61,881 nucleotides of DNA, filler included, from Hausera hauseri (GCA_046269625.1; 11 parts of 11 records of this genome joined end to end with filler, not necessarily neighbours in it), one strand, 5' to 3'; counted from the whole stretch's first letter, positions 6,402 to 41,600 are shown. Translations and numbers: made by a program. The notes: a model not told the origin generated them from the letters alone.

Positions 6402-9400
6402 TAGCTGCAGCAACCACACATACCTCATCTCACGTAGACACGACTGTTTTCGCACAGCAACTACAATTAATGCAGAAACAATACGATACTTTACAGCATT
6501 CAATTTTTGCCATCACCGCCCAACTAAGTAATCTGTCTATGTCTCGGCGAGGTTAGACTCGTGCATTGCGTGAGCGTAGCCTCTCCAGGCACTCATTTCG
6601 TTCTAAATCTCCGGGAGGAGGAATGATTTGTTTTTATCACAATAAATTTTATAAAAACGCAGACAAATGTCTCCTAGGCTGTAAATTTTATGATAAGCGT
6701 TTTGCGGTGGACAGCCTTATCTGCATTTATCAAACAAAATTTCATTCTCTAGCCAGATCGTGGGTTCCGGGTTGTAAACATTATAAAAACAACTTCAGTT
6801 TTTCTTCATCTTCTTCTCCTCTTCGTTCTTCTTATAATTCATCTTCTTTTTCTTCACAATCTTCAAAAAGCTAAAAAGGCCACCAGATGTTAATGCATAT
6901 TCTGGCATAGGCAATACCGTTCAGTCTTGTAGCCGTTTTAACACCGTCTTCGCAGTTTTTCTGCTAAAAGCTACACTGTTCTCTAGCAGTGCTTCACATA
7001 TCGATTTTCTTATTGATTCAGGAGATACCTTTTCACTTCTTCCTTTGTCCTTCATATCTACATCCACTGCAGTTTCTCCTGCCATACTTTTCACTACCAG
7101 CGGTAAGCCTTTGCGCATTGCAGGTACCTCGGAACTAATTTTTACATTTTCAAACTTACTAAGCAAGTTCGTCTGGAAATTCCACGTGGCCAATATCAAA
7201 TCGCCCATAAACGGCTCATATTTTTTGGCCACATACAATCTGCTAGTTGACTGCAAGTATGGCTGTTTTCTACGTAGAAACGCCGTCGTGAACGTTAACA
7301 ATTGTCTTTAAGATAGCTCAACAGGTACTTCGTTTGCAAACTCACATATGAGTTTGGCAAATTGTCCGTCGGTTGATAACGATACATTTAGTAATTTATC
7401 TATTTCCTTAGTTACATCTCAAATATCGAAGTCGATTTTAAAACAATCGGTTAAATCGAATGTTGATGGTGACAGTGTTGGTTGTTCTTCGACAATCACA
7501 GCCACTACCTCCTCTGATGATATGCCTCAATCACTTTTATCACTAGATTCCAATCTTCAAATTCCAAATCCTACAGCACCTTTCGAACATCTCTCATCCG
7601 GAAAGAAAAGGCAGTTAATCCATTGGACTCCCGATTTATTTACCAAATTCGAAAGGACTCTGGTTTTAAGCCTCAAACAACAACTTATCACCGCATAGTG
7701 ACCAAATACCAACGACCTATCAGCCAATTGGTGAGACCATTATCTCCTCGTAGACGAAAACCCGCGGAATTAGAGTTTAACGAACTCGAAAAATCTGGTA
7801 TCATTCGGAGGTCAAAATCACCATGGGCTTCACCATTACATGTAGTAGCAAAAAGGACGATACTTTTGGACCATGTGGAGACTACCGTCAAATAAACAAT
7901 CTAACCATCTTGGATGCTTACCCATTACCGCTCATAAAGGACATCCTACACAGTCTTAGGCGTACCAATACTTATTCCATAATAGATCTGCACAAAGCCT
8001 ACCATCAAATTCCCGTTGCACCCGATGACATTCCAAAAACTGCTTTCATCATTCCATTTGGCCTTTACGAATATATCTTTATGCCATTCGGTTTTTGTAA
8101 CGCAGCCCAAACCTTTCAACGCCATATTGACACCGTTCTCTCAGGTCTTGATTTTGCTAACCCGTACATCGATGACATATTGGTTGCTTCCAACTCCGTC
8201 AAACAACACCATGAACATATACAAATTATTTTTCACAAACTACATCATAGCAACTTACAAGTTAACTTCTCCAAGTGAAACTTCTTTCAGAAAAGTGCCA
8301 ACTTCTTAGGCCATATTATTACTCCTCACGGTCACTCTATACAACCTGATCGACTACAGCAATTGAAAAATGTAACACTACCAACGACCACTACAGATAT
8401 AAGCAGTTTTCTTGGCACACTACATTTCGTCCATAAATACGGACCGCATTGCTCTGAGCTTACAGCACCTTTCAAACATCTCTCATCCAGAAAGAAAAGG
8501 CAGTTAATCCAGTGGACTCCTGATTTAGTCACCAAATTCTATCACTTACACGAAGGCCTAAAAACCGTCGAAATGCTGGCCTATCCAAAACCCAACGCGG
8601 AGGTGATACTTACCACCGATGCCTGTACCAAAGCTACTGGTGCAATACTGCACCAGATTTCAAACGGCGTCGATGTACCTTTAGAATTTTACTTTCTAAA
8701 ACTCACACAACCAGAAATCTGATATTAAACATTTGATCGTGAGCTACTAGCCATAGTTCTGGCAGTAAAACATTTCAAGCATCTCCTCTCTCGTCCATTT
8801 GTCATCAAAACCGTCCACAAGCCTCTGTTGCACATCATGTCACTAAAACAGCCATCACTGAGGCAGGAACGACAGATATCGTACCTATCTACATTTAGTT
8901 TTGTCATAAAGTATATTTCGGGTACTGAGAATTTGGTCGCTGATTTTCTATCGCGGTCGATGGGCTAAATTACGGTTAAACCAATACTTTCTACCGAAAT
9001 TCTAAAGTTCAATCAGCCATCTGCTGATATTCTTAGCTCTTTCAAATCCTTCAAAATCACTGATGGCATTGCATACGACATATCTAACTCCGGTAATAAA
9101 AAAATCATTCTTGCTCCTTCTTTCAAGAAACCACCTTTCCTTTACATGCATTCACTTCATCATCCAGGCTTAAAAGTCACGTTTCGCTTGCTCCAGCGTC
9201 ATGTAGTTTAACCATCAATGTGCACAAATGTAGAGGGCATGCGTAGGAGTGCGTAGCCTGTCAAAAATACAAAGTAAACAAACATCTTAAACCGCCGCTT
9301 TACCATTTCCATTGTACATTACGTCTTCATACCGTCCATCTTAACCTCGTTGGCCTTTTACCTTCTGACAACGGGTATTAACATATTCTCACTATGATAG

Positions 9401-10100
9401 ATCGTGCTTTTCGCTGGCCTTAAGCCGTTCCTCTCCGTTTAACAAACACTGATTCAGTAGCCGATGCCTTCATTAAAATCGGGATCAGTCGCTTTGGCTC
9501 CCCACGGCACATCATAACGGACCAAGATCCGCAGTTCGAATCGGAGCTCTTTAAATCGCTTGTTAAACGCTTGGGCATATCACATTTCCATACAGCACCG
9601 TATCAACCACAATCAAACGGCCTCCTTAAAAGGTTCCATCGAACAAAAAATTTCTTTAAAAATCTTGGCAGACAATTATCGCAATTGGACGTCCGTCCTA
9701 CCATTTGTTCTACTCGGGTGAGGCAACAAACCTTCCACCACCATGGGTTGTGCTCCAGCCGAGGCATTTTTTTGGACTCCAATACGGACTCTGTTTGAAC
9801 TTTCTGATCTCGAAAACAATCCGACAGACAAAAACATTCGCTCGGCACAGTCTCACTTCGTTGAGGTCAGCTCAAACTCGTTTTGCCGCCTATTTAACAA
9901 TAACAAATCGTACATTCCGAAGGAGTTATACTCAGACAAGTTTGTGTGGTTGAAGGATCAATCGCCTTCGAGTTTTCGACCTCATTATGTTGGCCCATAC
10001 AAACTTCTTCACCTCTCATCTCATACAGCTACCATCTTACGCCAAGAAAAACCCTATAGCATTCACATTTCGAATCTTAAGCCCGCTCTCTTGGTTGATG
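6402..10100 (+). mobile_element. Degraded Ty3/Gypsy LTR retrotransposon internal region: gag end, protease, RT, RNase H, integrase
   Basis: Gag CFYHNKF...C and CIYQTKF...C; protease FLIDSG; RT SPWASPLHVV, CGDYRQIN, IDLHKAYHQIP, MPFG, YIDDIL; RNase H LTTDAC, FDRELLA; integrase TDQDPQFES, PYQPQSNGLLKRFHR. Order PR-RT-RH-IN; many frameshifts. Confidence 0.93.
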
Positions 10101-11147
10101 ACAATCCGGATGCCGATTTTGCTTCCAATTCCAACTCAACTTTCACATCTTTTCTTTCCTTAAACTTTCTCCACGACTTCGCTCCGTTGCAGCAATAACT
10201 TTTCTTTCACACTAAATTATCCTCGTCTTCTGCACCGCTTACTGTACCTACATCACATATATCGTTTTCTTCGCCCGTCTCTCTTCCCTCTCTTTCGTCA
10301 TATCCACTGCCGTCTGTTTCATTGCCTTCAGTTTCTTCGCCTCTTTTGCTTCAGTTATTCTCTTTATCTTCTTCAACTTCTTCACCACAAGTAAGACAGC
10401 ACACTAAATCAGAAAATATTATGAAACGTCTGCCACAAAATGTATTTCAACAGCCAATCACAAATCAATGGAATAAGGCATGCAAAGTGACATTTATTTC
10501 CTATAGTAGGGAAAAATCCGTAGAAGGAATACATAACATATTTTGCGTTTTGTCCTTTTCTGTTTTAATTTATAATTTCTTTTCTGCTACGGTGTGTAAT
10601 GTAATGCCACAGTGTAGGACATGCCCTTCATTTTTGGCAATCGGGTTACCGTTTAGTTCAGCTAGGCCGGCACGGTTTTCTTCCTGTCCTTTACCTTTTG
10701 GCCTGTGTTTGATTGGCAGCCGAAGAATCCATATCATGTCAAATAAAATCAGTATTCTTATTTGGATGTTTATCAGGCTACAAATTACTCTATTTTTATT
10801 TTTACCGTTTGTTTCATAATCGTCGCTGAAAAGCCCGAATTGACGTTGGAAGTAATGAATGACAATATAAGCCCAACTAAAGCATGTCGAGCACATTAAA
10901 AAAATACTCACTAAATTCATCGGTTTTGCATAGTCCTGCAAAAAAAATACGGAAAGTAACTTAAGGCCCGTAAAATTTCTAGATTTTTACGGAAAGAGAT
11001 TGACATGTGCCGTTATCACAGTTTCATTACAACAATATCTTAATGCTCATCACCAATTATCGATCTGATGTAAAACACCTCAATAATATTACGTTGGAAT
11101 TACTTGCCAATTCGGGATTTAATCTAAAATATGGTGGATACAATGAT

Positions 11148-11305
11148 AGATATCGTACAGTTCAATTAAATCGTAGTAGAAATGCCGTGTACGTCAGATG
11201 TTAAATTTGTCTTGAAGATTATCAAACAAGAATAAATTACTTAAGTCAGGAAGTCGATGTATATGATGATTGAATAAACGCTTGTGAAGAAGCAAGTAGC
11301 AAAAG
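11148..11305 (+). pseudogene. ELOF1: Transcription elongation factor ELOF1/Elf1 C-terminal fragment with two in-frame stops
   Basis: TVQLNRSRNAVYVRC*ICLEDYQTRINYLSQEVDVYDD*INACEEAS aligns by eye with ELOF1 [46 protein letters not shown]. Confidence 0.85.
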
Positions 11306-12459
11306 GCAATTAATTTTCACTGAATATATTTTTGTATAGTTTCCCTTAGGATTTAGTATTATTTTACGAATAATTTAAAATTGGAAGTAACAGATTGATG
11401 TCAGTTATTCAGTATCACCGATCCCGAATTATTTCAATAAATTTGTACATTAAAAAAAGAAATTTTTTTTCAAATTTGATAAATATCTCATTCTCAAAAT
11501 TCTTCAAAACGGCGTACCACATCAAAAATAACGAAGTCTTGGGGAGAGTGCATGATAGTCTGATTCATCCGACCTTTTATTTTTTGTTTTAATACTCAAA
11601 AAAACTTTCTTTTTTTACTTGTATCAGTCCGACATTTTTTAACGCTAATACAATTTCTGGCATTCCTTAATTTTGAATGTTTCATCCGAAAAGATCAACC
11701 TGTACATTTTATTTTCACGATTACGGGAGTCTCATAACTATTGTCGGTGGTAAGTTGGAGCTCCCAAACATTCCTAAACCATCGTTTCCGATAATTGGCT
11801 ATAACGCTTATTTTACTAAAATTTTCCCACGACACCCCCTGGCCGAAAAAGCGGTCGAGAAATGGACTTTGGACAGAGTCATGTTGGTAGCACGTGACAA
11901 GACGATCAAAATTTTATATCGGTGAGAAGCTCCGAAGTGTAAGGGAGAGGACCTAGAGAGAAAAAAAGCCAAACAGGAAATTTTCCACAGCTTACGCAAC
12001 ACTAATTACTGGGAAACTAAAACTCAGTACAAAGGTGAATTCGATGTCGACTAATCAAATAGTTATATTTTTAAGCTCATTCGAGCATAAGAACATAAGG
12101 AAAACCGAAGGGTAAAGTTTCAGACTCAAAAAATTTCCCCTTGTCCAAGTCGGCCGGTAATGGAAATCAATTAGAAATGTAGCCCGTCATTAGATGTACA
12201 NNNNNNNNNNNNNNNNNNNNNNNNNNNNNNNNNNNNNNNNNNNNTTAATTAATTAANNNNNNNNNNNNNNNNNNNNNNNNNNNNNNNNNNNNNNNNNNNN
12301 ATGTATTTAATTGATTCATTAAAACAATAGTGCATTAAAACCAATCAATAAGCGAGGTAGTACGTGGTGATATTTCAATATTTTTCATTATTTCCTAGAT
12401 CACCTCAACGAAATGTGAGTCTTTTTAATTGTGCTCCTCAAATAATTGGTTTATTTTAG

Positions 12460-15400
12460 ATGTGCAAACTTTACAGCGAATGCTTGGCTCAAATCAACGA
12501 GCCGGAAAATTGTTACAGTGTTATGAAGAAGTACTTTGGCCATATGTACAACAGGTTTCAGTATTATATATGCCCTACATGTGAGGTAGTGTACCAAATT
12601 AATTATAAAGACCTTTACAATGTCCGTAAACAGCACTTGATTTCCTTCACGAAATCGAAAAAACAATATGCCAATGGCGGCTTTTGTGCCACAGAAAAAT
12701 CAAAGATTCAGTTCATATGTGTATTGCATATGTGCAATACACAACCCTCAGAATTGCCGCAATGCCATGAGGAGCTATTATGGGCACAAATTCAACATTA
12801 TCATTTGATATATCTGCCCAGGATGTGAGGCTGTGTGTGATGGAGAATACATATAGTTTTATGAAGATCACAAACATAATTTGACTGATTTCGCATCAAA
12901 GTCAAAGAAGATCATCTTTAATGAACATAAGCCAGTTGCATAGCCTGCAGTACAGATAAATGCAGGACTAAAACGCGCATAGGGCGCATCAGGCGCATCA
13001 GGCGTAGCGGCTCCATCAAAGAATCAAAAACAGCGGCCAGTTGATTCTGCAGCATTAAAGAAAAAATGCCGCAAATATGTCATTGATGCAACTGATTGAA
13101 CAACCATCAAGGAGTTCCTGGAGTACACAGAGGAAGAAACAGAGGGGATTCTTCAGGACAACACAGCTGAGCTCAAGGCCATTAAGGCTAATATGAATCT
13201 TGAGGCCATGTACGTCAATTTTTATGGCGAAGAGTCCAAAAGTGCCTTCAAGACCCAAAATAGACTCATTTTTGTAGCCATAAAAATAGTAGAATGGCTG
13301 CGTGAAGAGCATGCAAAGCTGATCCATGAAGCTGACGCGAGCCAGGAAAAGAAGAACGGATGGATTCTGGCAACCATCAAGAGATTGTTTGTGTATGTTC
13401 ACAAGTACTCTCCCACGAGGGGTACTTCTTATAATTAGCTACCGGAATGGATCGCTAATAAAAAGGCATGTGTCAATGTCCATAATAATGACAACAAGTG
13501 TTTCATGTATGCCATTCTATCAAAACTCATACAGAATCAAAAATATGCAGCAGATCGAGTTTGGCTATATAATGATCTAAAGCACAACTACGACTTCCAA
13601 TGTATCACATTCCCTCTATCCTTAGATGAAATTAAGAAGTTCAGCCGAATCAACAACAATTGCATCAACATCATTGGATTGGATGAGCAGGACAAATTTT
13701 ATCCCCTGCAGATATATGATACTGAATTGGAAGATCATAGGGATCTGCCCCTACTAGACGATGGAGAAAGGAAACATTATGTTTGTATCAAGAACTTTGA
13801 GCATCTAGTCAGATCCCAAATTACGAAACATCATAGACAAATAGAAACATGTAAGCGATGCTTGACTCATTTCAGTGGTGATGCAGCAGTGGACAAATTT
13901 GCATAGCACAAGATGTACTGCAACAACAATTATTGTATCAGGCCAGAATTTCTCGAAGAGGATTATACTGAATTCAAGGAGTTCGAGAAGAAGATCAAGG
14001 TCTCAATAGTTATCTATTGCGACTTTGAAGCTATTCTACTTCCAGTTAAGAATTGCAGTCGTAATGCCCAACATAGGAGCACAACAGCATATTAATATCA
14101 TGAACTCTCATCATATTGTATGTATGCCTAAGGACTGGACAGTGAATCATTCTATTCAGGGGTTCAGGCGCAGCAGCACATTTCATGAAACGACTCAAAG
14201 AAATGACTCATAAGCTTGGAAACATGCTTCAGCAGTTTAATAATAATATGAGCATGTCGTGGAAACAAGCTGAAAAATGGCGCAGCGCAACAACATGTTA
14301 CTTGTGCTGCAAATCATTCACCAAGAAGAATCAAAAAGTCAAGGATCATTGCCATTTTACAGGCACATATTGAGGAGCAGCATGCAACAACTGCCATCTG
14401 AGTTGCAAAACATGCACCTATGTGCCTGTAGTGTTCCACAATCCCAGTGGCTATGATTCCCACTTTATTGTTCGGGAATTGGGCAACATTGATGGAAACA
14501 TTGATGTCATTCCCAATAGTGAGGAAAAATACATCACTTTCACCAAGCATGTGGGCCGCATTAGACGTCGACTCATAGACAGCTTCTGATTTATCAGCTC
14601 GTCACTGGATAGTTTAGTGAAGAACCTCCGTGCAGAAGAACTCAAGGAGTCGAAGCGGTTCTTCCCCACTGCATTTGACCTCGTCAAGAGGAATGGCGTG
14701 TTTCCATATGACTATATAACCTCATGGTGAAATACTGGATAAGACCTCATTGCCGAACAAGAAGGACTTTTACAGTGGCCTATCTGGTTAAGATATCAGC
14801 AATGCTGACTACCAGCATGCACAGAATGTCTGGCATGCATTCCAATGCCGAACATTAGGGGAATACAGCGACATATACCTCGAGACAGACGTGCTGTTGC
14901 TCACAGATGTCTTTCAAAGTTTAAGGGATGTAACAATGAAGAGCCATGCATTGGATCCAGCTCATTTCTTTACGGCCCTAGGGATGAGCTTGGCACCTAT
15001 GCTGAGATATACCGGCATAAGGCTGCAGATCATCAAGGATTACGACATGATCCATATGATCGAGAGAGGCATTAGAGGCGGAATATGCCAGGCCATTCAT
15101 CGATATAGCTAGGCCAACAACCATTATATGGCTCAGTATGATCCATCCAAGGAATCGTCATATATATCATACCTGGATGCAAACAAATTGCATGGATATG
15201 CAATGAGCGCACCATTGCCGTATGGTAACTTCAAATTGGTCGAGAATCCTGAAAGAATCCTTATATTGGACCTGGAGCCCACTGGAGATACGGACTACAT
15301 ATTGGAAATGGATACGGAATATCCTGCTTTCATGGACACAAGGCATTAACGTCTGCCTTTTCTCCCTGAGAACAGGCCTCTGCCTCATGGAAATCATAGA

Positions 15401-16353
15401 AAGCTGCACTGACATCTGGGTAATATGGAGAGGTATGTAGTTCACTACAGGCAGTTATACATGGACTTCGTATAACCAAGATCCATACAGCCCTCCAGTT
15501 CAGCTAGTCCATGTGGCTGCAGCCCTAGATAGATCTCAATAGCAAGCTTTGGACAAATGCCAAGAACGATTTTGAGAAGTACCAGTTCAAGCTTTACAAC
15601 AACTCTGTTTTTGGCAAGACGACGGACAATATCCGCAACAGGATCAACATCTAACTTGTATGTGACTGGAAGCGAGCAAAGAAGCTTATTGCCAAGCCTA
15701 ACTTCCACAGCAGCATCATATGTCCTGAGAACGTAGTCAGCATCTATATTCTAAAAACATCCTTGGTATTCAGCAAGCCCATATATGTGGGTATAGCAAT
15801 CCTCGACCTGTTAAAGACCCTGATGTATCATTACCACTACGACATCATGGTCCCCAAGTTCAAGTTCATGCAGCTGATGTATATCGATACTGGTAGTTTC
15901 ATCTATCACATCCATACAGAGGATATTTATGAGGACTTTGCCCAGTTAGCAGAGCATATGGATACCTCGGAATATCCTAAGGATCATCCCAATTATTCTA
16001 TTGGCAATAAGAAATTTTTTGGGAAATTCAAATACAATGTGGATGGGGTAATAATATCGAGATTTGTAGCTTTAAGATCTAAAATGTATGCTCTAGATGT
16101 ATGCGGCCAAGTAAAGAAGCGAGAAAAATGAATTCAAAGGGCTACATTGGCCAAGAAGATCAGTTTTGAAGACTATGTGACAGTTCTGTAGAGGCAGACA
16201 AACACTATATATAAAATGAAAAGGATCAAATCTAGGGATCATAAGGTCCAAACTGTAACCTTACAGAAGAAAAGCCTAGATTGTATGGACGACAAGAGGC
16301 AGATGCTGAGCGATGGAATCCACACACTATTACATGGGCACGTGGCATTGTAG
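12460..16353 (+). pseudogene. Near full-length Maverick/Polinton (adintovirus-like) protein-primed family B DNA polymerase, with many stops and frameshifts
   Basis: KYSPTRGTSY, IYCDFEAIL (Exo I), CYLC...KVKDHCHFTGTY*GAAC (endonuclease-VII-like insert), FHNPSGYDSH, GIRGGI, YLDANKLHG (motif A), [11 protein letters not shown] (motif B), YIDTGS (motif C), LRSKMY, DDKR. AATAAA follows at about 16385. Confidence 0.93.
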
Positions 16354-16850: not shown

Positions 16851-17139
16851 TACATAGCTCCTTTATGATATATTAATTATTATTATCCACGAATCCCTCC
16901 AAGTCAATAAATAAGACAGACATTATTTCAACAATAACATTTATTAACACAACAACGTTTATAACAATTTTATGTACATTGGCGTCTAAGCCAGTCCACA
17001 CAATAATTCCCACATAGAAATGTCAATNNNNNNNNNNNNNNNNNNNNNNNNNNNNNNNNNNNNNNNNNNNNTTAATTAATTAANNNNNNNNNNNNNNNNN
17101 NNNNNNNNNNNNNNNNNNNNNNNNNNNTGAGACACCCCG

Positions 17140-18130
17140 CGACTGTCCTTTGCGTCACAGTTTTAATCTATTCCTAATTTATTATGGTTCACTAGAAATA
17201 TTTGTTTTGAAACTGTGTATCGTAGCAATAAACGAACCATATGAGAAAAGAATTACCGGAATAATTCTCCTTTATGGAATACGATTAGTTGACGGTATTT
17301 TTATGGCTTTCAACATTATATTGAGTATTAAAACAAAACATTTCTACTATACAATGAGGAACCATTTCTATGTTGTCGATATAAAACATGGTAATGTGAT
17401 ATACACACTTGTTTCCCGTTTTTATATTTGGGTCGATCGGATTTTTTTTTCGATTTATATATATTGATGAACGAACCGTCATAGAAAACGGTATGGTTGG
17501 GTTGCTTGTAATCATTTATCTTGAATATGTACTGGTAATTATTATTTCGGTGTCCATTTTTATTATTGTTATTGAATACGGAAGAAAGAAATTCAGTGTA
17601 TTCAAGCATGACGAATGCAACAATGAGATGATAAAACTAATCAATCAAAACAGATTTACAATACTCTTAACTGTGGGATCATTGTTCTTTTCCGTTTATT
17701 GTTTTACCCTCATATCGAGTTACGAATGTTTAGTCATGCTCAATTTTAGGAATAAAAAATATATCAAAGGATAATTATCAATATCAACTGACGGTATTAG
17801 CTCTCATATCAGTGACCACTGTTTCAATGTTCTATTTACTCTATCGACTGAAGGGTTACGTTTTATATAAAGCTCACAATAATATTGTGGAAATTACTTT
17901 TACCCGATCAATAACAGAAAATATTTCCTTGACCAAATATATCCTGGTCAACAGTTTCATTTGTTGTACTATCTCCTGTTTGTTGTTCTTTTATTGCATG
18001 AAGTTCAGTCGGAAAGATTTTCATTTCTTGGTGAATTACGGCATGAAATGTATTCCGAATACGTTGGGTATTGTCGTGAGTGCTATATTGTTATTCGAAA
18101 TGAAATTCTGGTCTGTTGTCAAACGTAGAC
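17140..18130 (+). pseudogene. Degraded multi-pass membrane protein fragment, possibly Frizzled/Smoothened-like 7TM
   Basis: Successive hydrophobic helices across three frameshifted ORFs. FLIYYG, EMIKLINQNRFTILLTV, SSYE and MKCIPNTLGIVVS fall in Frizzled-like order; the similarity is weak. Confidence 0.3.
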
Positions 18131-18975
18131 ATAATATTTTACATTCATGTCTAATCTACAGTGGTTTTTGCGGAACGGTACTAAAGTGCTTCTCGCAGTT
18201 AGCATTCGTAGTTAACACCATAAGTGCCGATAAACATCAAATGTTACCTTACGTCATTGCCATGGAAAATACATGTCACTTAGATAACTAGTACGCTACC
18301 CATTGTCAACTGCTCGAACAATTGTACGAACTACTCGTCAGTTCAAATTTAGACGTTGCTGTACTACCCCGATATTATAAGCATCTCATCTTACGGTTGA
18401 TTCCCGTTTTTGAAATTATTATATCATCATTGGCTTATATTTCTCAAATTCTTTACCTTCGCTAGCAAATTATTTAATTTCCACAGTCATCCACTTTATT
18501 TCTCCTTTGTTCTTATTCGTCTTCAATCAACATGGAGTTTTGACAATCGTATAGTAATGCAAATTCTCGTCCGACATATTCTTTACGAACACCAGACAAT
18601 ATGTAAATCTTTTCCGTACGTTAGTTGGCGATATGATAATATTTCATCGCCATTCGCACGAGTAATTTATTATACCGTTAGTTACTTTCGGAAATTTATT
18701 GAACCGTGTGTCGAAAGTGAAGGTCAATTTTTTTGGCCTGTCATATGTCTGGAGCCCTTATCGGTCGACTCTATTCAGATAAAACTGGAAAGTTCATTGA
18801 GTTTTAGGCCGAATTGTATTGTTGTCTGGCATTTTTACCTAGGAGTCCGTCTATAGTTTACATGGATACGATCGCTGATCCTATGCATCACATCAAATAT
18901 AATCATGCTGGCCATGGGGTATTTCTCTATGTCAGTACTATTAACAACATACTGCAAATGTGGGCTATGTATTAA

Positions 18976-21108
18976 TTGATTATGTTTTACCGATGCACAA
19001 AGGTTGAATTGAAATCGCTGAAACAGGTTCCGAAATTCATTTGCGTGAAATTCGTTGTTTTTCTGCCTTTCTGGCAGTCCATTGTTTTTACTATTCTTTC
19101 ATGGACCAAAGTCATTGATAAAGTTGAAGCATGGGAACTTTATAAATCCGAAGAAATATCTTCTAGATTCAAAAATTTTTTTATTTGTATAGAAATGTTC
19201 TTCGCAGCAATTGCTCATCACTTTTCTTTTTTCGTTCATCCCTACCAAAGAAATAATGAATACGGTCAACAACTATGTTGTTATTCTTGTCTGGCCATCT
19301 GTGACGTCTCAGATGTTAAAAGAGACTTGTTCTGTTTTTGTGGTTCCACAAACTGTCGCGGTTTTTCCGAATTTACAAAGTTAGTGCCATCGGATCTATT
19401 TAAAGTGTTCATCTCTCCAACGAATAGTCCCACGAACTTTATTGTGGAACATCACATCACTTTACCATCCGCTGACGCCTTCCTATCGACTACGGAAGTT
19501 CCACCTTCAGACGAAAAAGTAATATCGTTCAACGAGAAACAGAGTGTGGACGTTATAGTCAACTCTGAATCCGCTATTATTGCAATGCAACCACCGATTG
19601 ACAACATGTGCATCGACGATGAGTTGTCGAAAAGCTGTGAGCACGAGAATTTCTGTTTCCGATGTTTTGATGGTGGCGATTTGACCCACTGCAAAAAAAA
19701 CGAATGTCCGAAAACATATCAAATTTCATTTCTCGGATTTCGTAGGGCACCTACCGGCACCTGGTTCTGTATGAGGCACTTCTGTGATGTGTGCGGTATT
19801 CCTTCGACGATGTTCTGTGTTGAAAGTCCTTGGTCCTCACGTGCGCTCCATCAAACTGATCGAATGCCACCGCTGACTACCGTTCGTGTCGTGCCGACGT
19901 GTCTTGTTAATAAGCCGACGGATATTGTTCGAAACTGGTACTGTTCTAGTAACGAAACTGATAAATTACATTACGTTAAACAAATACAGTTTCAAGGGAT
20001 TAATAAAAGTTTTATCGGACAAGGCCGATCCAGTAATTTTAAAATATACAACTTGGATACGATGAAACTAATAGACATAAAAGAAGTTGTTATCATTAAA
20101 CCTTATACTCATGACTCATTCGATTACAACATACTCTTTAATTCAAACCATTCATCATTCATCGAATATTATGGCGTTGAATCCAGTCTCAGTCAGTTTC
20201 GAATATTTACCGAACACTGCGATAGTGGTTTGCTACCCGAAATAACTATAATTGATACCCCTGATTTTATCATCAGACAACGGACAAAACAGATTCTAAA
20301 GGCGTTTGTATATTTGCATGACAATCAAATTGTTCATAGTGATATCAAGCCCGATAATATATTTTTAGTAATGGTCGAGGATACCACTATGTGCCACGCA
20401 AAACCTGGCAACTTTGGAGTTATGAAATACTTAAACAATCATATAGTTATTCTTCAGGAAATTACTAGTACTATAAGGTACATAGCTCCTGAGGTTGTAA
20501 TCGTTGATAGTGCTAAAAATGTACCGAAAACAGGATATAATCATAAAATTGACCTTAGGTCAGTGGAGTGCGTTACACTTTCCATTGTAACTGGACACAG
20601 CCCCTGGTCTGATACACAGCAAGTTATTCTTTATTATAACTTAGAATGGAACAAAAAACCAAACATATCCCAAATTAATGACAGAATGTCCAAAGAAGCT
20701 TACGATTATACTACCGGTTGTTTTGTTGTAAACGCAGACGATCGATGGGACACACTAGGTACACGGCACGACGTTATTTCTTTCATAATATTCTTATTTA
20801 TGCCCATTTCGAATAGTTCAATCCCATTGGACGTTTTCAGTAAATATACCACTAGTATTTACGCAGGCATTCATGGAATAGAAGCTGGCCAAAACTTAAG
20901 TATTACAGTTTCTGTTTGCTGCTCCAATTTTACTAAATTCATTACCGGGCAGTTTTTGCAATATCGTATTTCCTCTTTGTTTTTATCGATTCTATTCGTT
21001 TCCTTTCGTTTTGAAATTGTGAAATGCATTTGTTACCCAGCAAAGACATTCGTTAGTGACATTATTTGCAAATATTTCGACACACTTCCATCTTCGTTGC
21101 GATTCTAA
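18976..21108 (+). CDS. 710-aa chimeric ORF: TMEM184C-like C-terminal half + NSD-type post-SET and PHD-C5HCH + MAP3K4/MEKK4-like degenerate kinase; probably a non-functional mosaic
   Basis: KFICVKFVVFLPFWQ...FFICIEMFFAAIAHHFSF..PY (TMEM184); CFCGSTNCRGF and CFRCFDGGDL..C....CPKTY...W.CMRHFCDVC (NSD); YYGVE, EHCDSG, HSDIKPDNIF, GNFG, YIAPEV, VTGHSPW (kinase). TMEM184 similarity continues upstream through the stop at 18973 to about 18700. Confidence 0.8.
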   Translation: MIMFYRCTKVELKSLKQVPKFICVKFVVFLPFWQSIVFTILSWTKVIDKVEAWELYKSEEISSRFKNFFICIEMFFAAIAHHFSFFVHPYQRNNEYGQQLCCYSCLAICDVSDVKRDLFCFCGSTNCRGFSEFTKLVPSDLFKVFISPTNSPTNFIVEHHITLPSADAFLSTTEVPPSDEKVISFNEKQSVDVIVNSESAIIAMQPPIDNMCIDDELSKSCEHENFCFRCFDGGDLTHCKKNECPKTYQISFLGFRRAPTGTWFCMRHFCDVCGIPSTMFCVESPWSSRALHQTDRMPPLTTVRVVPTCLVNKPTDIVRNWYCSSNETDKLHYVKQIQFQGINKSFIGQGRSSNFKIYNLDTMKLIDIKEVVIIKPYTHDSFDYNILFNSNHSSFIEYYGVESSLSQFRIFTEHCDSGLLPEITIIDTPDFIIRQRTKQILKAFVYLHDNQIVHSDIKPDNIFLVMVEDTTMCHAKPGNFGVMKYLNNHIVILQEITSTIRYIAPEVVIVDSAKNVPKTGYNHKIDLRSVECVTLSIVTGHSPWSDTQQVILYYNLEWNKKPNISQINDRMSKEAYDYTTGCFVVNADDRWDTLGTRHDVISFIIFLFMPISNSSIPLDVFSKYTTSIYAGIHGIEAGQNLSITVSVCCSNFTKFITGQFLQYRISSLFLSILFVSFRFEIVKCICYPAKTFVSDIICKYFDTLPSSLRF

Positions 21109-21619
21109 ATTATTTGAGCAAAATACTTCTTTTCTCTATTCCTCAGATCATACATTTAATTTATTCCATTCAACCGTTGTTTCACTTCATTCTTTGTCCA
21201 CGACATGGTTTTTAGAAATACCTTGCACTCGCAAGAATTTGTGAACTTCATGACGGCCACATAGAAATTAAGGAAGTGGTCCAGGCATCTCATTCTCTTG
21301 AGTTGCAAACAAACCAAGGCATGATAAACCAATCAACCTTTTATACTACATCCATGAGTCCCAGGCTATGGTCTGTTTTGTCACCACACCAACCACTTGA
21401 GTTTACACTGACTATTTCTTTTTTATTCTTTCTAAACAATCACCATTTACTGACACACAGAATGCCAAATTCGATAGATGCATCCTACCTACACAACTAC
21501 GTACTACACGTCGCCAACATCTCTGATTTTTATCTCACGTACAATAAGCTGCCAATAACTAACGCCAACCTCTGTAATATTTTTGTATCTTTAACTCATT
21601 GCATCGTCATTCACATGCA

Positions 21620-23590
21620 CATTCGCATACGTGGTGGAATGGAATCTTTACCTACCATTAACACCATTGACAGAAATACCTCCAAGATATCACATTTTGC
21701 GTTCAACCAAAAATTGTCGATCGTTACCACGCCATCTTCTTTCAGTAGTTATGCTTCTTCAACCTCACCAGTCAAACACGCTTCTCAGTGCAGGGAGTAT
21801 TTTATTGACCACGAACAGTGTAACAAAACGTGGCTTAGCTTCCACAAACTTTGGCTGCAATCTAACAACATCACTGATCCTGTACCTAATGTCCATAACC
21901 TGCTTTGTCTTCTACCAACAACTGTAAAAACGGCCATCCGTGATCTGCTAGATATCTTCCAGAAAACTGATCCATATACCCGTCTTTACAACGCCGTTTT
22001 GAAACTTACGGAACCATCTATGGACTCAATAATACACCGTTTCTTCAACGACAATGCAATGGGGACGCAGAAACCATCTGATTTCCTCAGAACTTCACTC
22101 GTGCAACTTCAAACACTTGGCGTGACTAAACAACATAACGCCGATCTTTTGCGACGTTACTTCCTGAACGCATTGCCTATACAAATTAGGGCCTTACTTA
22201 CTGTAATTGAAGAATCGACAACACTTGATAAATTGGCCGAACTGGCGGACAAAACATACGAGGTTTTGAACGCACACAATCAACCGGCCATTTCTGCAAC
22301 AGTTACTACCAACAACGTTACACTCGAACAACAGTTAAACGAATTACGCCGAAAATGCGGCACTCCATCACATCATCAACACTATCAATGATAAATTGAA
22401 TAATCTTTCTTTACATCGTCGTAATGTGCCTTCGACTAATCGAATGCGTTCTCCTTCCAGAAATCGAACACAGTCACCTACGAGGTCTCTCGTATGCTAC
22501 TACCACACCAAGTTTGATAACAATGCAAATAAATGTTGCTTAGATTTTAAATATTATTCGCAAAATCTAGATTCAAATAATATAATTTGCATCTATCATG
22601 CAAAATTCGGGTCTAATGCTCGTTGTTGTATTTCTGGCTGTACATACAAAACTAACAAAAACGATATACGTACCAACGTCTCTAGTAGTAGCCGTTCTAA
22701 CTCACCAATCCAAAAAACTGACTTTGCCGCCAGTATTCTCGGCAGATCCTGTCAATGGCAACCTATCTAATTCTTTAAGCCGACACGTTTCATTTGCCGT
22801 TTTCACATTAAAAGCTACTATCACCAATCCTAACATTCAATCCATAGATTTTCTCATCAATACTGGTGCAGCGATATCACTGCTTCCATTTTCTTTTCCC
22901 ATTCAACATGCTTCATCTAAAATAAAGCCTTTATACACTGCATTTGGTCAAGCCCTTTGTGTCGCCGGAACCTGCAAACTTTCTTTCACTCTACAAAATT
23001 TTTCTTCGTCATTTCATTGGACGTTTACAGTCGCTAACGTCCAGACTGCAATACTTGGCTCAGATTTCCTTTCACATTACAATCTACTAGTCGATTGTAA
23101 ACGACGCTGTTTGAAAGCAAATACATCTGAAAGCCTTAATACAAAAATAGACAACATCACAACGGTAACACAATCTACGTTCAATAAGCCATCTATTTTA
23201 AAACACTCGGTATTTCGTTCTAATCCCAATAACGATCTGATATTTTCTGTAAAATCACTAAACACTAACACTTACTCAAACGCGGTTCCGGAACAGACAA
23301 TCCTACTTCAGGCTCTACTTGATTCCTCATCAACAACTAATCATCATATATCAAGTAATGCTAGCAATCTCGGTTCATTATCAGTTACAACATTGCAACA
23401 GCTACCCACAAGTTTACAACAATTTATTCATACTTCTTGCCCTCAGATACTTCAGAAAGATAGGAATTTCATTCCAGTAAATAGCATTTACCACCATATA
23501 ATTACAACACATTAAAGGCCAATAAGACAAAAGGTCCGTCCATTGTCACCGCGACGCAGACAGGCAGTAGAAGCTGAATTTATGGAACTA
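21620..23590 (+). mobile_element. Ty3/Gypsy retrotransposon 5' part (gag, protease, start of RT); same family as 6402-10100; cut by contig end
   Basis: Gag DPYTRL...MGTQKPSDFLR...FLNALP..IR...LDKLAELADK; CYYHTKF and CIYHAKFG motifs; protease FLINTGAAISLLP, ILGSDFLSHYNLLVD. Confidence 0.92.
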
Positions 23591-23690: not shown

Positions 23691-26600
23691 TGTTATTGTA
23701 TAACAACCTAAAAAACGAGTCTTTGCTGAGTGTAACGATGTGGTTTGTGCTGCTCGTATTGTTTCGTTTGTGGGGTCTCTTTTAAGGCAGTTAGTTCGAA
23801 CAATGTCCGTACAGGAGCACCAAATAGAGCTTTAGTAGGTCAGCATTCTGAAGAAGTAAATGGAGTGTTCCGCCATCTAAATAGAACAAACGGAAGGAGA
23901 GTTGTCCATTTGGTGTTGGATTCTGCTAGAATTTTAAGTGAAGTCTTCAGTGGAATGAAATTTTGACAAGGAGGAAGATTGTTTATGTTTTGGAACACCA
24001 TGCACTACTTTTAAAAACACCATGCACTACTCAAATGACGGACGTGCTACCTCTCCTTCTAATAGCTGTCCTAGTTATCCGTTTCAAAAAGCTAACTTCG
24101 CCATCAGAATTTACGGCAAACTCTGACAAAGGCTATTCTTCACATTCTAACTGCCGATGCGCCTCATTTGCAGTTTTTACGCTGAAAACTGAAATCACCG
24201 AATCAACAACTCAATCGTTAGACTCTTATTGACATAGTCGGAGCAGTTTCTTTAGTCCCACTAACATTTTTTGTACAAAGTTTGCCATGCAAAGCCAAGT
24301 CATTATTTATTGCATCAGGACAACCGCTTCACATGTCCGAAACATATAGACAATCTTTCACCTTGTCAAAATTTTATTCCACGTTTCAATGGACGTTTAC
24401 TGTCACTAATGTTCGTACGGCAATTCTAGGTTCCGATTTTTTATCTAATTTTAATCATTTGGTGGACTGCAAGTAACGCTGTTTGAAAAATAACATCGCT
24501 AAAGATTTTAAGGACCACATAAATAGCATATCGGCTACCGCACAGGCCATCGTCACGCGGAAGTCTATAATCAAAAAGTCAAAGAATAACTCGAAATCTT
24601 TTAACAACTATATTTTATTTCGTAAAGTTTTTGATAATGATATGGATACTCAATCGGAGTTTCGTGTTGACAACTGTGATTTTGTTGGCTCTATAAATTC
24701 ACTAGACAAAATCACCTCTTCAAATACTATTTTTAATATTACCATCTTACACCAAATTCCACTGATATTAGAACAGCACACTACTTGCAAACCTCACTCA
24801 ATACTAATTATATCGACGCAACAACACCACCAGGATTCTCACAATTGCCTGCAAGTTAGCAGCAATACATTAATACGTCATGCCCTCGTCTATTACAAAA
24901 AGATCGAATGTTCATTTCTATAAACAATACCTTTCACCACATAATAACAGAACACCAAAGGCTAATTGGCCAAAAGGTACGTCCTTTATCACATAGTCGT
25001 AGACATGCTGTCGAGGCTAAATTTTGAACGCTCCGGCATTGTACGCCTATCCAAATAGCCATGGTCCTCTCCTTTGCACGTAGTCCAGAAAAAGGATGGC
25101 TCTTTTAGACCATGTGGTAAATACACTCAACTCCACCATAGTGTATTCAACTATAGACATAGCCAATGCATATCCTCAAATTCCTGTAACACCTGAAGCA
25201 CCTGTAGCAGCATGGAGAAAACTGTCGGTACAACACTTTTCGGCCTTTATGAATATATTTGTCTTTCGGTTTACGCAACGCTGCGTACATTTTCCAACGT
25301 CGCATCGATTCCATTCTCTCGGATTTCACTTTTGCGTACCCATACATTTACGATATTTTGATCGTTTTGTTTTCAACCAAACAGCACGAGGAACACCTTC
25401 GTTCTATTTTCCAATGACTTAAGCAACATAATCTCCAGTTTAATTCTGTGAAATTTCATTTCTTCCAAAAGCGTATTGACTATCTCCGACATCATTTCAT
25501 CAAATGACCATTCTCCTCAACCCAGCAGAGTCGAAGCACTAAAAACATACAACTACCAATAACAACAACGGAAATGAAGAGCTTTTTAGGTACTTTAGAC
25601 TTCGTCCGAAAATATGTTTCATATTGTTCGGAACCTTTCTCACATTTAAGTGGTGGCAAAAATTATCAGCCGATTCAATGGACACCTGAATTGGTTGATA
25701 AGTTCGATAAGCTTCGCGAAGGTCTCAAAATTGTAGAAATACTTGCATTCCCTAAACCTGACGCTGAACTTATCCTCGTCACAGACGCTTCAACTACCGC
25801 AGTAGGCGCCGTCCTACATCAGTTATACAAAGGTGAAAATGTGCCACTCAAATTTTTCGCTAGAAAACTAACGCCACCGGAAACTAGGTATTCCAAATTT
25901 GATCGAGAACTACTGGCGATAGATTTTGCTTTAACCATTTCTCACACTTATTCACACCGCGCAGTTTTGTTATCCAAACTGATCACAAGCCTGTAGTCAC
26001 CATTATGACTATTAAACACCCATCTATACGCCAAGAGCGACAAATATATCTGTAAACATTTAATTTCGATATCAAACATATCAACGGTGTTAATACTTTA
26101 GTTTCCAATTTTTTATCTAGATCAGTTTGTTCGATGAATATTTTACCAGTTTTTAATCAGGCAAAACATCTAGAAAACCAGCCACCTTCAGACATTCTTA
26201 ATTCTTTTAAATCTTTCAACGTCGTCGACAATCCAAAATAATTCTTGCTCCATGTCTACAAAAACAGACATTTGATAACATACATTCGTTACACCATTCT
26301 GGTGCTAATGTCATTTTTCCTTTACTTCTACGACAGGTAGTTTGGCCGTTAATGCGTTCTGGTGTGCAGGTATTGGTTAAGGAGTGCGTGACTCGTCAGA
26401 ATATAAAACCATTAAGCATTTAAAGTCACCACTATATCATTTTCACTGCACATCACATTTTGAATCCGTGCATATCGATCTCGTCAGTCCTCTTCTTCCA
26501 GACAAGACCATCAGTTCATTCTCACTATGATGGACCATTCCTCGCGATGGGCAGAAGCCATCCCTATGCCGAGCACAAATACTGACACAATAGCTAATGT

Positions 26601-27620
26601 TTTCATTCGTACGTGGATTAGCATCTTTGGATCGCCTCGCTTCATCATCTCGGACCAAGGTCCTCATCATCCCAAGGTCCTAACACAGACGATCGCGCAG
26701 GCGATGGTAACCGGTTTCTTGGCACAAAATGAGCACGATAAGGAACAAAGTTCCTCCGTTGAGACAGCGAAATGTTGTTTAATCTACTGTTAATGTTGTT
26801 TGTCGTTGTTTGCAATGCTGTATTTTCGGCGCGTAACTGAATTAACTATTGCCCTATTGTTGTGTTGTTTTGATTATTGTTATTAGTAACTACTGCCCTA
26901 ATGATTGACTGTGAATATAATTGTAAAACCTTGTGTGCCTTATCGGTTAATTCGGCTAGTTTATCCAAATCTTTCGATTCTTCGACGATAGTAAGTAGAG
27001 CCCTAATTTTACTGGTCAAAGCATTAAGGAAATAGCAATGAAGGAGATTCGGATTGTGTTCATTGGTAATGCCAAGCGTACGTAAATTGGCCAAAGATGT
27101 GCGTAAGAAATTGCTAGGTTTTTGCATGCTCATTGCGTTTTCATTGAAGAAGCGTTGTATGATCGAGTCAATTGATGGTTCCGTTAGTTTTAATACAGCA
27201 TTGAATAATTCCGTATAAGGATTGCAATGATGAAAGATGTCCAGTAAGTTATGTATGCATGTCTTTATTGCGCTTGGTAGAAGATACAGTAGATTATAGG
27301 CTTTGACTAACGGTTCAGTGATGCCATTGGATTGAAGCCAGAATTGGTAAAAGTGAAGCTACGTCTTACTAGAGTTTTCATTATCTGTAAAACTTTCAGT
27401 ACATTGTGAGATGTAGTAGAAGTGGTTTTAGGTAAAGATATAGGATCAGTTGAGAGTTTTATTGGCTTATTTTGGATAATAGACAATAGGTTTAGGTTTT
27501 GTAGTATCGCTGGTTGATGAAGAGTGCATATCTCCACGAATTCTGAGGTGAATATTGAGAAAAAGGTGAGTATGCGATGGAGAAATGAAGTCATGAAAGT
27601 TAAAGTTGTGAGTTAGAAGA
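23691..27620. mobile_element. Rearranged Ty3/Gypsy copy of the same family: gag (-, ~26680-27600), inverted PR-RT-RH-IN5' block (+, ~23963-26665), integrase 3' end (-, 23691-23962)
   Basis: Minus-strand QKPSNFLRTSL...LDKLAELTDK. Plus-strand ILGSDFL, LVTDAST, YSKFDRELLA, RWAEAIP, ISDQGP. Minus-strand KTSLKILAESNTKWTTLLPFVL. Confidence 0.88.
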
Positions 27621-27919
27621 GAACCATTATGAGTCAGGTAAAAGTCATGAAGGTTTGCAGATGACTAAAGATAGGTATATATGTAAGGTGTGTTAATATT
27701 ATGTGAGATTTTATAGATTAATGTCTGTTATTTTAAAAAGGAAAACCGAGAATAGTATGTAAATGGATGTGTGATGCAGGGCTTCAACGCAGTGTGCCCC
27801 GTACCCCACGGTCGTTGGGCGAGCAACAGAGACGTAGCCCCTCCACGAGACATCAAAGTGCCGGGCGATAGAGCCCTCCCTCGAAGAACCTGACTGAAGG
27901 TATAGTTTGGTTCCCCGTA

Positions 27920-29030
27920 TCGTTTTGTAGGATTGATAACTGATGGGAATGATTGGTTGATTGAAATTGTACCGAGAAACAATTTTTATAACAAATTCAT
28001 CAAATTGTTCTACGGAAATTGTCGTGTTGATATTCTACCAGCTTTTCTTCAAATGTTACCGGTTTTGGTTCTGATTTTTAAATACTGAGTTGTGAAAATA
28101 AAACCGTTTCTCATTTTCAGTTTCTTTTATAAACCAATGTAGAAAAGATGATTGGAAATATTCTATCGTAACGTCTTTCAATGCAATTCTGAAAAACATC
28201 TAGGTGTAATGTAGGACAAACTTTCTATAATTAATCGCATTTGTTTGTTGACATACTTGTGGAATAAATGTTCGAATCAAATTCATATTAAATACTATCG
28301 TACCGTCCTTTATTAAGTACGATCTAGTTGGACTTACACCAACAATGGATAAACCACGGTATCCACTGATAATTTCCAGTGTTTTCTTCAAACCGAGTCG
28401 AAATGTTCGAATTTTATGAACGTAATACAATCCTTTTTCTATTCTCAACTTTTTTACCAGTCTGGTAAGATAAGGAATGGGATTCCTTTTATGCAAGCGT
28501 GTTGAATGAGATTAGCAACATGACTGGATTGACGTAGAGTAGGTAGAAAATTTTCATACATGATCGTCTCGGTACTATTTAGGAAATCGGTAATATTTAT
28601 TACGAACGGTATTTTCTATGAGAATCTTGAGTTTTTGGCCAATATTTGTCATGTTGATAAGATTGTTAGAACAATCTTGTGGAAAACTCAGATCATGTAG
28701 TTTTAGACGGTTTAACAGCAAATTGCGACAGGTTAAGAAATTCACATTTCGGAAGTATAGTGCAAAATCAGAAATACTATGGATTTTGAAAACGTCATTA
28801 GTGGGAAGGAAAATTTTCCATGTCCGAGCTTCGTGTATCATGTGATTATCTTGTGCAATCTCAGAATTGTCATTGTATAAATACCGTTCGACCTCATCAT
28901 GTTCTGTCAGTATGTCCGGTTTATTTAAAACTGTCGGTTCAATCATGATTCGTGGCACGTGTTTGGGCAACGAATCCACATATAAAATCCCATCAATGTC
29001 GTACGTATATCGGTGACGCAACAGAAATAT
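27920..29030 (-). pseudogene. Degraded intronless gene of unknown function (~350 codons, includes ORFs 28575-29021 and 28200-28496)
   Basis: Consecutive same-strand frames with protein-like composition (TYDIDGILYVDSLP...). TATAAG lies upstream at 29181-29186 on the minus strand. Confidence 0.4.
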
Positions 29031-29621
29031 GGAACAAGAAAAAAAATGGTAGTAGTAAAGATGAGCGAATGTGATGGTAGATCTCCTTGTGATTGTGAGA
29101 GCTGTATGAACTCTTAACTCTTGGCAGATGATGCTATTAACTAAACTGAACAGATCAGGCTGAAGCGGGATGCAGTACCACTTATAAACTTCAGAAGTTA
29201 AATAATGTGAGCCTCGCCATCACGGTGATAATATAGCCGGGAAGGCAGAAGGTTAGTTGGATCAATAAAAAGACAATGAGACTTATACAGGTAGGCTGGC
29301 TTGGGAGGAAAGAAGGCGTGCATGTAGATAAGATGGCGGGTTGATGGATAAGTACATATATTAGTTAAGTATGTTAGGTAGGCAGGTATATAGGTAACTA
29401 GGGTAAGTGCTCGTGTTAAGCATTTAAGCATTTAGAAAAACAGGTTAAGTGAACATGCAGAAGTGATTGCTTATTTCGTAAGTGAATACTTAGGTGGAAT
29501 TGGGTAGTTGGATTGATAGGTAGTGGGGTGAGGTTGTGGGAGATGGGTACATCGGTAAGTGGGTAATCCAGGTAGATAGGCAGTAGGCAGGCAGGTATTT
29601 AAACTAGTTCTTGTTCTTGTT

Positions 29622-29862
29622 CGATCTCCACATCACCGAGCGTTAGCTCTTGTGGATGAGCCCCGAGAATGGGCTGTTGCAGTCCCAAGAATGACTATGG
29701 AGGAGGGTAGTTGAGCTTTCCTGCTGTCCCGGTGGTGTCTAGGAGGTGGACCGAGGTCCTCCAAATAGTAGTGTTCCACCATCCCAAGCCGCCACTTGTT
29801 AGCCAGCAAGTCTTCCTACCATTGCCTGGAGACATGACTTGGACGTAGGCAGACTATCTGGG
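29622..29862. repeat. Interspersed repeat, second copy at ~32235-32490
   Basis: Shared colinear blocks GATCTC.ACATC, CTGTTGCAGTCC.AAG, GACTATGGAGGA, CCTGCTGTCC, GGAGGTGG.CC.AGGTCCT, TGTTAGC. Confidence 0.85.
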
Positions 29863-41200: not shown

Positions 41201-41600
41201 CTACTAACGTGTGATAGTTTTATTCTCTTGTACTACTATCAACCTCGTCTGTGATACATCATGGATTCATTGAATGGTGGATTGTATTAATGCTATAGTA
41301 TGCTAGATTGTAGGCAAATGCCGGTGAATATAAATTTAGCTACCCAAGGTTCTTATATTCGATGTATCTTAGTGGACAATCAGTGCTCTGAACCAAACTC
41401 AAGCAATTAGTAACAACGCATAACATGGTGTGCAAGTTTCTGAGCACGAATGCATGGATTTGATAAGAATGTGGCTTTCTTCCAACAAGGATTTATTGAA
41501 NNNNNNNNNNNNNNNNNNNNNNNNNNNNNNNNNNNNNNNNNNNNTTAATTAATTAANNNNNNNNNNNNNNNNNNNNNNNNNNNNNNNNNNNNNNNNNNNN

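Follow-up and report, generated by a model that had tools for sequence, protein, structure and literature searches.

A decayed Gypsy copy in the Hausera hauseri assembly carries a mosaic of host gene pieces ahead of gag, probably gathered by serial template switching and filtered for an open frame

A long open frame joining pieces of unrelated genes was noticed in a stretch of 61,881 nucleotides (hereafter the window) from the Hausera hauseri assembly GCA_046269625.1. The window is a string of unrelated contigs, and our analysis is confined mainly to the one that bears the frame (G000:C97987, 6,463 nt, window 17128-23590) and to its relatives in the same assembly, labelled L with a number and called sisters below. 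With good though not complete confidence we regard this contig as a decayed copy of a Gypsy element, in which the stretch between the primer binding site (PBS) and gag is a mosaic built by serial capture through template switching and filtered for an open frame, and not as a functional pseudokinase gene. The mosaic, or cargo, consists of six pieces in the order unnamed membrane protein, MED23, TMEM184C, NSD, MAP3K4 and DPAGT1. The features of the contig, with the evidence on which each is placed, are the following.

17128..17224, plus strand: element leader (blastn to L005, L043, L046, L129, L130)
17225..18262, plus strand: piece of an unnamed multi-pass membrane protein with two frame shifts (69-74% DNA match to L127/L192)
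18263..18913, plus strand: C-terminal piece of MED23, internally deleted and broken by frame shifts and stops (PF11573 on sisters, alignments)
18914..19329, plus strand: TMEM184C, C-terminal part of the Ostalpha domain (PF03619; longer intron-free copies L004, L043, L022; closest named proteins from flatworms, 55-59%)
18976..21108, plus strand: 710-codon open frame (frame search and translation)
19323..19329, plus strand: TMEM184C/NSD switch point, 7-nt microhomology in codon phase (L145 versus L050, L173)
19330..19907, plus strand: NSD post-SET, linker and PHD5-C5HCH (NSD2/NSD3 chains; sisters with SET, PWWP and NSD PHD fingers)
19908..20744, plus strand: MAP3K4 kinase domain, eroded (Pkinase; L039)
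20745..21290, plus strand: DPAGT1 piece, right end approximate (PF00953 on L045, L047, L056, L042; DPAGT1 relatives; alignments)
21290..22770, plus strand: gag-proximal region and Gypsy gag, left end approximate (DUF7041, weak, E 0.0026; Cys motif)
22790..23590, plus strand: protease, then the first part of reverse transcriptase, cut off by the contig end (RVP, weak; colinear with L107, L182, L185)

The frame runs from stop to stop over 710 codons (18976-21108, plus strand) and opens right after a stop codon, as the first-pass annotation had stated. The Pfam scan which that annotation had suggested finds the end of the TMEM184 domain (PF03619, residues 2-90, E 5.6e-24) and a kinase (Pkinase, residues 345-591, E 2.8e-26), and the middle piece matches the PHD5-C5HCH chains of NSD2/NSD3 (E 1.8e-15), which confirms that pieces of unrelated genes are joined in one open frame. 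The erosion described earlier, namely NFG, HSD and the lost PHD ligands, is all present in the translation. The three named genes are real, while the count of three falls short: DPAGT1 is a fourth piece inside the frame from about 20745, and two more pieces lie upstream. As to the two junctions, the one given at about 19330 is now placed at 19323-19329, and the other lies near 19908 instead of about 19950.

Several of these names are owed to the sisters. The TMEM184C subfamily was assigned via L004, and the label MAP3K4 comes from L039, in which MEKK4_N (E 3.6e-16) precedes the same kinase; a search of the PDB with the kinase of L040 at E 1e-15 gave no match. For MED23, PF11573 matches L046 (E 1.5e-18) and L006, and on L051/L006 it reaches profile position 1304. 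The window's own DPAGT1 piece has no Pfam match, being too worn to score. The membrane protein piece matches no Pfam family and its Atlas leads are all under 0.9; it occurs at this place in the window copy only, and a Logan contig of run X1 covers 17191-17779. In the sisters the leader begins about 140 nt past the PBS (in L046 the PBS is at 506 and the match starts from 646), the PBS and the long terminal repeat (LTR) lying off the window contig, and its last part looks, by eye, like the beginning of the MED23 piece. At the other end, gag has one perfect CX2HX9CX3C motif at 22588 with one imperfect copy ahead of it; a weak Omega-toxin Pfam match on this Cys motif (E 0.014) was taken as chance.

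The unbroken length of the frame had been called unexpected in decayed DNA. In fact the window copy has stops at 18289, 18805, 18973 and 21213 and a frame shift near 21085, all private among the aligned sisters, and it is this shift, absent from every one of them, that ends the 710-codon frame within the DPAGT1 piece. About 12 lesions fall in the 6.46 kb of the window contig; with that many, a stretch of 2.1 kb free of them has P of about 0.11, so that judged by its own lesions this copy has a frame of only slightly remarkable length, although P would be 0.001 if lesions came at the 3.2 per kb that the sisters show on average. The 710 codons are best read as the surviving, longest part of a frame once open throughout, which was picked out for its length.

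A DNA search of the assembly yielded 41 matches at 75-100% (40 scored candidates of 95), and the joints of the mosaic recur in other contigs. Counting those that span a joint by at least 40 nt, there are 3 for MED23/TMEM184C, 8 for TMEM184C/NSD, 10 for NSD/MAP3K4, 14 for MAP3K4/DPAGT1 and 38 for DPAGT1 and the gag side, and none for the two joints of the membrane protein piece; further copies of the two junctions first described are thus in hand. The TMEM184C/NSD joint is bridged by Logan contigs of two runs from two studies (one of these may come from the source sample), and the joint at 17224 by one Logan contig; the NSD/MAP3K4 joint is unbridged among the Logan pieces listed. In run X1 the summed depth of contigs is about 14 close to the 5' end, 200-450 across the part under study and thousands across gag, a rise which fits nesting and gives no copy number. 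Because the joints recur in other diverged contigs, the mosaic is a real repeat and no assembly error. The first-pass annotation had named misassembly, or segments that turn out to be separate neighbouring genes, as outcomes that would overturn it, and the assembly is indeed fragmented (909,086 contigs) and mixes organisms; with the same joints in 8-14 diverged contigs and with the Logan contigs across the TMEM184C/NSD joint, we give a false joining of neighbouring or unrelated genes practically no credit.

The cargo is part of an element whose other parts are preserved in the sisters. Gag, protease, reverse transcriptase, RNase H and integrase follow each other in Ty3/Gypsy order in L040, L182 and L185, with pol behind cargo in all three, while the window contig stops at the start of the reverse transcriptase; L107, L182 and L185, which are colinear with its 3' part, carry reverse transcriptase and RNase H. 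A PBS-like motif is seen in 16 of the contigs analysed, and a polypurine tract with LTR ends in L040 and L185, so that the PBS after the 5' LTR and the polypurine tract before the 3' LTR are present in sisters though off the window contig. In L185 the PBS is followed by the cargo, then by gag and pol, the polypurine tract and finally a 3' LTR ending without a PBS. From the PBS to the gag core there are 3.2-4.7 kb (five contigs with both), and over 10 nt the PBS agrees with the tRNA-Leu type reported for Steamer (PMC8905726). One giant LTR holding all the cargo was considered and dropped, since both the LTR ends and the PBS proved to lie ahead of the cargo. Altogether the earlier suggestion of fragment capture directly upstream of a Gypsy gag is supported; what it had missed is that the mosaic is multicopy, that the cargo is part of the element and that in sisters it shares its frame with Gag.

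Some further observations concern the LTR and its surroundings. In L108, L111 and L119 the integrase end is followed by the polypurine tract, the LTR and then straight by cargo and gag, which may be tandem elements or a circular path of the assembler, and at L040:7382-7489 an inverted polypurine tract and LTR start are joined to kinase cargo. The DNA just past the polypurine tract differs among five copies (L195:950-1845, L040:490-1394, L108:1090-1970, L111:718-935, L119:4353-4921); at that place an Mpv17/PMP22 piece in antisense (E 1e-4) is seen in L195 and a weak match to innexin in L119, and the LTR itself may take up host sequence. Moreover, the 3' part of the LTR in L043, L046, L111, L185, L139, L135 and L040 contains a hairpin, conserved and about 45 nt long (about -20 to -23 kcal/mol); it lies upstream of the PBS where a PBS is present, and a double change in L111 keeps the base pair. 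It is a candidate packaging or dimer signal.

The comparison of copies revealed a nested pattern of joint reuse, in which sisters are alike in the Gag-proximal part and differ further upstream. For example, in L039 a MEKK4_N region of 610 codons is joined directly behind the PBS and is followed by the same kinase and DPAGT1; in L041, L050, L170 and L173 the post-SET is the same but more of NSD precedes it, including SET or PHD fingers; L004, L022 and L043 have a longer TMEM184C, and in L005 a TRRAP piece replaces the TMEM184C front. On the sense frames of sister contigs Pfam recognizes about 30 host families, including TOG, FRY, MEIOB, CLEC16A, SSRP1, KH/vigilin, ERMP1, kelch, NHE, DEAD-box, XPG and NAT10, a few of them weak and one upstream of the PBS, and none of 15 antisense frames has a Pfam match. 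Among 107 contigs (202 kb), the 14 of 121 oriented contigs that were non-element, LTR-only or unsure in orientation being set aside, frames of at least 250 codons number 52 on the sense strand and none on the antisense strand. The cargo is free of introns; L004, for instance, is unbroken across two intron sites of a snail-like TMEM184C exon in the same assembly. Where Logan contigs end loosely on the MAP3K4 piece, splice sites were considered and rejected, since these ends are coding continuations or other joints. At the TMEM184C/NSD joint the copy that continues TMEM184C (L145) and those that continue NSD (L050, L173) share 7 nt exactly at the switch. As to the route of capture, for which Helitron/Pack-type capture or template switching of reverse transcriptase had been offered, the latter fits, and the former does not agree with cargo that lies between PBS and gag, in sense, intron-free and with microhomology.

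Two other groups of intron-free pieces were seen in the assembly. L201, L203 and L205 are multicopy MED23 N-terminal pieces, 86-89% alike, and are probably more cargo. A second multicopy, decayed TMEM184 family (L021, L024, L027, L033, L037 and others; at least 9 contigs, 80-95% alike) is A/B-like by eye, and its DNA is unrelated to the cargo.

How selection acts on the cargo can be seen by dividing the variants among copies into shared ones, found in at least 3 copies, and private ones; the shared variants would mostly reflect change while the family was copying itself. In gag and protease the ratio of nonsynonymous to synonymous changes (N/S) is 0.27 for shared versus 2.24 for private variants (p 3e-27), while in the cargo it is 2.53 versus 2.72 (p 0.58). 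The three named gene pieces taken together give 2.83 versus 2.58, and the MAP3K4 piece gives 3.06 versus 2.88, that is, no constraint on the fold; the word pseudokinase therefore stands for decay and not for a protein under selection. Stop codons behave differently: they are 2 of 482 shared versus 47 of 1066 private cargo variants (p 5e-6, still 0.002 after halving the expected rate for polarity), and the other five cargo frames show no such drop (3.5-6.9%). Thus the frame is under selection and stops are purged in the cargo frame only, with no amino-acid constraint on the cargo protein.

The joints point in the same direction. All-against-all comparison gave 76 clusters of breakpoints, 37 of them callable, and the frame is kept in both partners in 25 of the 37 (22 of 34 without three lumped clusters), for which the null is 0.33-0.40 (about 0.39 for 7-nt matches between these coding sequences; p 2e-5 to 6e-4) and decay sets a ceiling of about 0.72. 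Moreover, of 14 family copies 7 have at least 100 open codons in the PBS phase that reads W-C-Q, and none of the 28 other phases has as many. The frame continues into gag in L003, L045, L108, L183 and L224, and L108 has a frame of 882 codons from cargo into gag. A DPAGT1-Gag fusion is absent from the best 120 of 602 protein matches (26-47% query coverage, lengths 273-872).

We therefore suggest the following course of events for serial capture with a filter on the frame. Reverse transcriptase would leave the element RNA in the stretch between PBS and gag, copy part of a host mRNA and return; host mRNAs were likely co-packaged, the switches likely taking place at short microhomologies, one capture after another. 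Each capture would replace part of the older cargo, and therefore the Gag-proximal joints would be the oldest, the order of capture being DPAGT1, then MAP3K4, NSD, TMEM184C, MED23 and the membrane protein. Captures inside gag-pol would be lost, and those ahead of gag would multiply only with an open frame, because Gag would be the tail of a polyprotein: ribosomes would set out from the 5' LTR or its neighbourhood, pass over the PBS and need to arrive at gag. No function of the cargo protein as such would be under selection, and the window copy would have gathered its private stops and shifts after insertion. Going further, though here our expectation falls somewhat below even, this may be an autonomous Gypsy lineage in which Gag forms the tail of a polyprotein of 1,000-1,500 residues with a constantly reshuffled library of host fragments as its front; it might then act as an in-frame exon-shuffling engine by which a flatworm genome has been filled with chimeras that can be translated and are drawn from dozens of housekeeping genes, selection bearing on the frame and nothing else.

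The chief competitor is itself a variant of this explanation, and the confidence expressed at the outset includes it. It accepts the same capture route and supposes that the frame is kept open by avoidance of nonsense-mediated decay, with Gag made from an internal start or a shorter RNA. Such avoidance explains the purging of stops without amino-acid constraint equally well; moreover, a hydrophobic N-terminal extension of more than 1,000 residues (TMEM184C, DPAGT1) would seem hard on a capsid protein, and Ty1 RNA is packaged in trans (PMC3945221, accessible part). The continuation of the frame into gag itself in the five sisters named above speaks for the fusion, without firmly separating the two, and we consider decay avoidance possible but the less probable course. 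Unlikely in our opinion is a mosaic that formed in DNA, where copies of the element and retrocopies already present would have undergone ectopic recombination or repair with each other, as in the tinkering loci of Drosophila. Microhomology is also a mark of DNA repair, pieces such as NSD and MED23 occur in several arrangements, and transposon sequences are named as sites of such gains in the accessible part of Weisman; however, the strict sense bias and the lack of introns over about 200 kb of cargo do not favour it, nor does the confinement of the cargo to the stretch between PBS and gag, and reassortment of copies could happen during reverse transcription as well. A domesticated host chimeric gene, encoding a functional membrane-anchored PHD pseudokinase, could be argued from 2.1 kb without a stop where sisters have 3.2 lesions per kb, yet the length has the P of about 0.11 given above, shared variants of the three pieces show no constraint on amino acids, the kinase motifs and zinc ligands are lost and stops stand in the same frame at 18805 and 18973, which makes it very improbable. 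Hardly any weight, and even less, goes to Helitron or Pack-type DNA capture with the Gypsy adjoining by chance: these elements do stack gene fragments (PMC6431247, accessible part), but 38 other contigs have the cargo attached to gag, the PBS is where it begins, and no antisense or intron-bearing cargo was found, a judgement made on orientation and intron state, with Helitron and terminal-inverted-repeat ends not searched.

A number of points weigh against the preferred explanation of capture and frame filtering. Both donors are in hand for one joint only, TMEM184C/NSD, and L145, the sole copy that continues TMEM184C past it, is itself shifted and joined to another gene and is no clean parent. 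The search for parental genes, suggested by the first-pass annotation, gave no intron-bearing parent of TMEM184C, MAP3K4, NSD, MED23 or DPAGT1 among the best candidates, which were the ones scored, so that absence is not shown; what it yielded were intron-free, cargo-like copies or exons of other organisms. Because parents were not found, intron loss is judged against other species only, and the capture through RNA is something we infer. As to the frame, the three named genes alone give a weaker stop signal (p 0.02-0.2 by setting), stops in at least 3 copies stand at 4 of 852 codon sites, never in a majority, a few 2-nt deletions recur in 3-4 distant copies at slippage-prone sites, and at a T-run near 18727 all five covering copies are out of the MED23 frame, three of them with the same length. 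Among the breakpoint clusters 12 of the 37 are out of frame and 39 of the 76 uncallable; they are not fully independent, and some are internal deletions or ends of divergent alignments. Since Ty1 proteins can package RNA in trans (PMC3945221), a need for Gag in cis is not given. Finally, there is no intact LTR pair: the two LTRs of L185, the sole contig with parts of both, align over only about 100 nt at 80%.

The host of the element is probably a flatworm, as judged from sequence relationships: the best named relatives of the cargo TMEM184C are of trematodes and a cestode (51-59%), and in a quick tree it stands beside flatworms with 95% support on a long branch. The assembly mixes organisms, since it holds flatworm-like cargo, snail-like exons, MED23 exons that look vertebrate by eye and bacterial-looking genes; for instance, a TMEM184C exon in it is 97% like that of the snail Physella, and PF00953 matches look bacterial. 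Elsewhere in the window, on other contigs, decayed Gypsy parts (RNase H, protease, zinc knuckles) occupy 6402-12200, 23691-29862 and 37541-41500, of which 26846-27358 (minus strand) resembles by eye the gag of the cargo-bearing family, and an integrase core lies at 53975-54394. Two related, decayed copies at 12305-16131 and 60364-61881 (79-88%) look by eye like a Polinton/adintovirus polymerase and have no Pfam match at E 0.001. The contig at 41601-45804 is as a whole a 22/78-bp periodic repeat rich in CACGTG-like words. At 56270-58537 (minus strand), on another contig, an intron-free frame of 755 codons has a DUF3591 match (TAF1-like, E 5e-11) and a C-terminal zinc-knuckle-like motif.

These results bear on how chimeric frames arise. 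The capture of mRNA by LTR elements is known mostly as a rare event that cripples the element, with in-frame joints left to luck; the Gypsy family described here kept gag-pol, makes its captures one after another in a single place and seems to act as a filter that passes open frames regardless of the protein. Such a filter would explain the origin of the long in-frame chimeras of several genes in this assembly, and it offers a measurable case of frame selection apart from protein selection, by which it becomes testable how often raw chimeras become genes. In the meantime long intron-free 'novel fusion genes' of this genome are likely to be element cargo and should be treated with caution.

Compared with known systems, each taken here from the accessible part of its source, the mosaic is closest to the LTR-mediated retrocopies of Tan et al. 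2016 (PMC5131818), in which partial pieces of host mRNA also lie within LTR elements with a sense bias, several parents may contribute to one locus, as in the four-gene 'Super' retrocopy of mouse, and multiplication follows. The median microsimilarity at their joints is 6 bp, and we have 7 nt at TMEM184C/NSD, a microhomology that matches the pattern these authors report for template switching. In all their Drosophila cases, however, the retrocopy replaced part of the element's open reading frames (ORFs), leaving it non-autonomous, whereas here gag-pol is kept and constrained; further differences are that the cargo stands ahead of gag, that about 30 genes occur in one family, and that one open frame is maintained from joint to joint and on into Gag. 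Maize Bs1 likewise joins pieces of three unrelated genes in one hybrid frame of an LTR element (PMC5131818, PMC13317346). It has 1-5 copies with the same switch points and one piece out of frame, and is read as a new gene, unlike the present family, in which switch points vary among many copies and protein constraint is not seen. The giant Burro Gypsy elements of planarians, which likewise belong to flatworms, also carry host-like domains within their Gag polyprotein (PMC6431247), but there Gag is N-terminal with a fixed set of domains behind it, while here the additions precede Gag, vary by copy and erode. With CsRn1 and PwRn1 of the CsRn1 clade our element shares the Gag signature CX2HX9CX3C (PMC2582038); that clade has a tRNA-Trp PBS, the present element a tRNA-Leu type, with two signature copies and a cargo region of 3-5 kb, and because the PBS differs it is not filed in the clade. 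The tinkering loci of Drosophila resemble it in a transposon-linked build-up of gene fragments into composites (bioRxiv 10.64898/2026.08.09.743762), although they are fixed genomic regions fed by ectopic recombination and ours is a mobile unit that would be fed from mRNA. In the literature searched, most subscription papers and the supplements of Tan et al., which possibly list joint frames, lying outside it, no paper on serial in-frame capture ahead of gag was found. Altogether the system works like the retrocopies of Tan et al. and Bs1 and departs from that class in one feature, the element's ORFs being kept; the capture of mRNA by LTR elements was already known, and what is new here is selection on the frame only.

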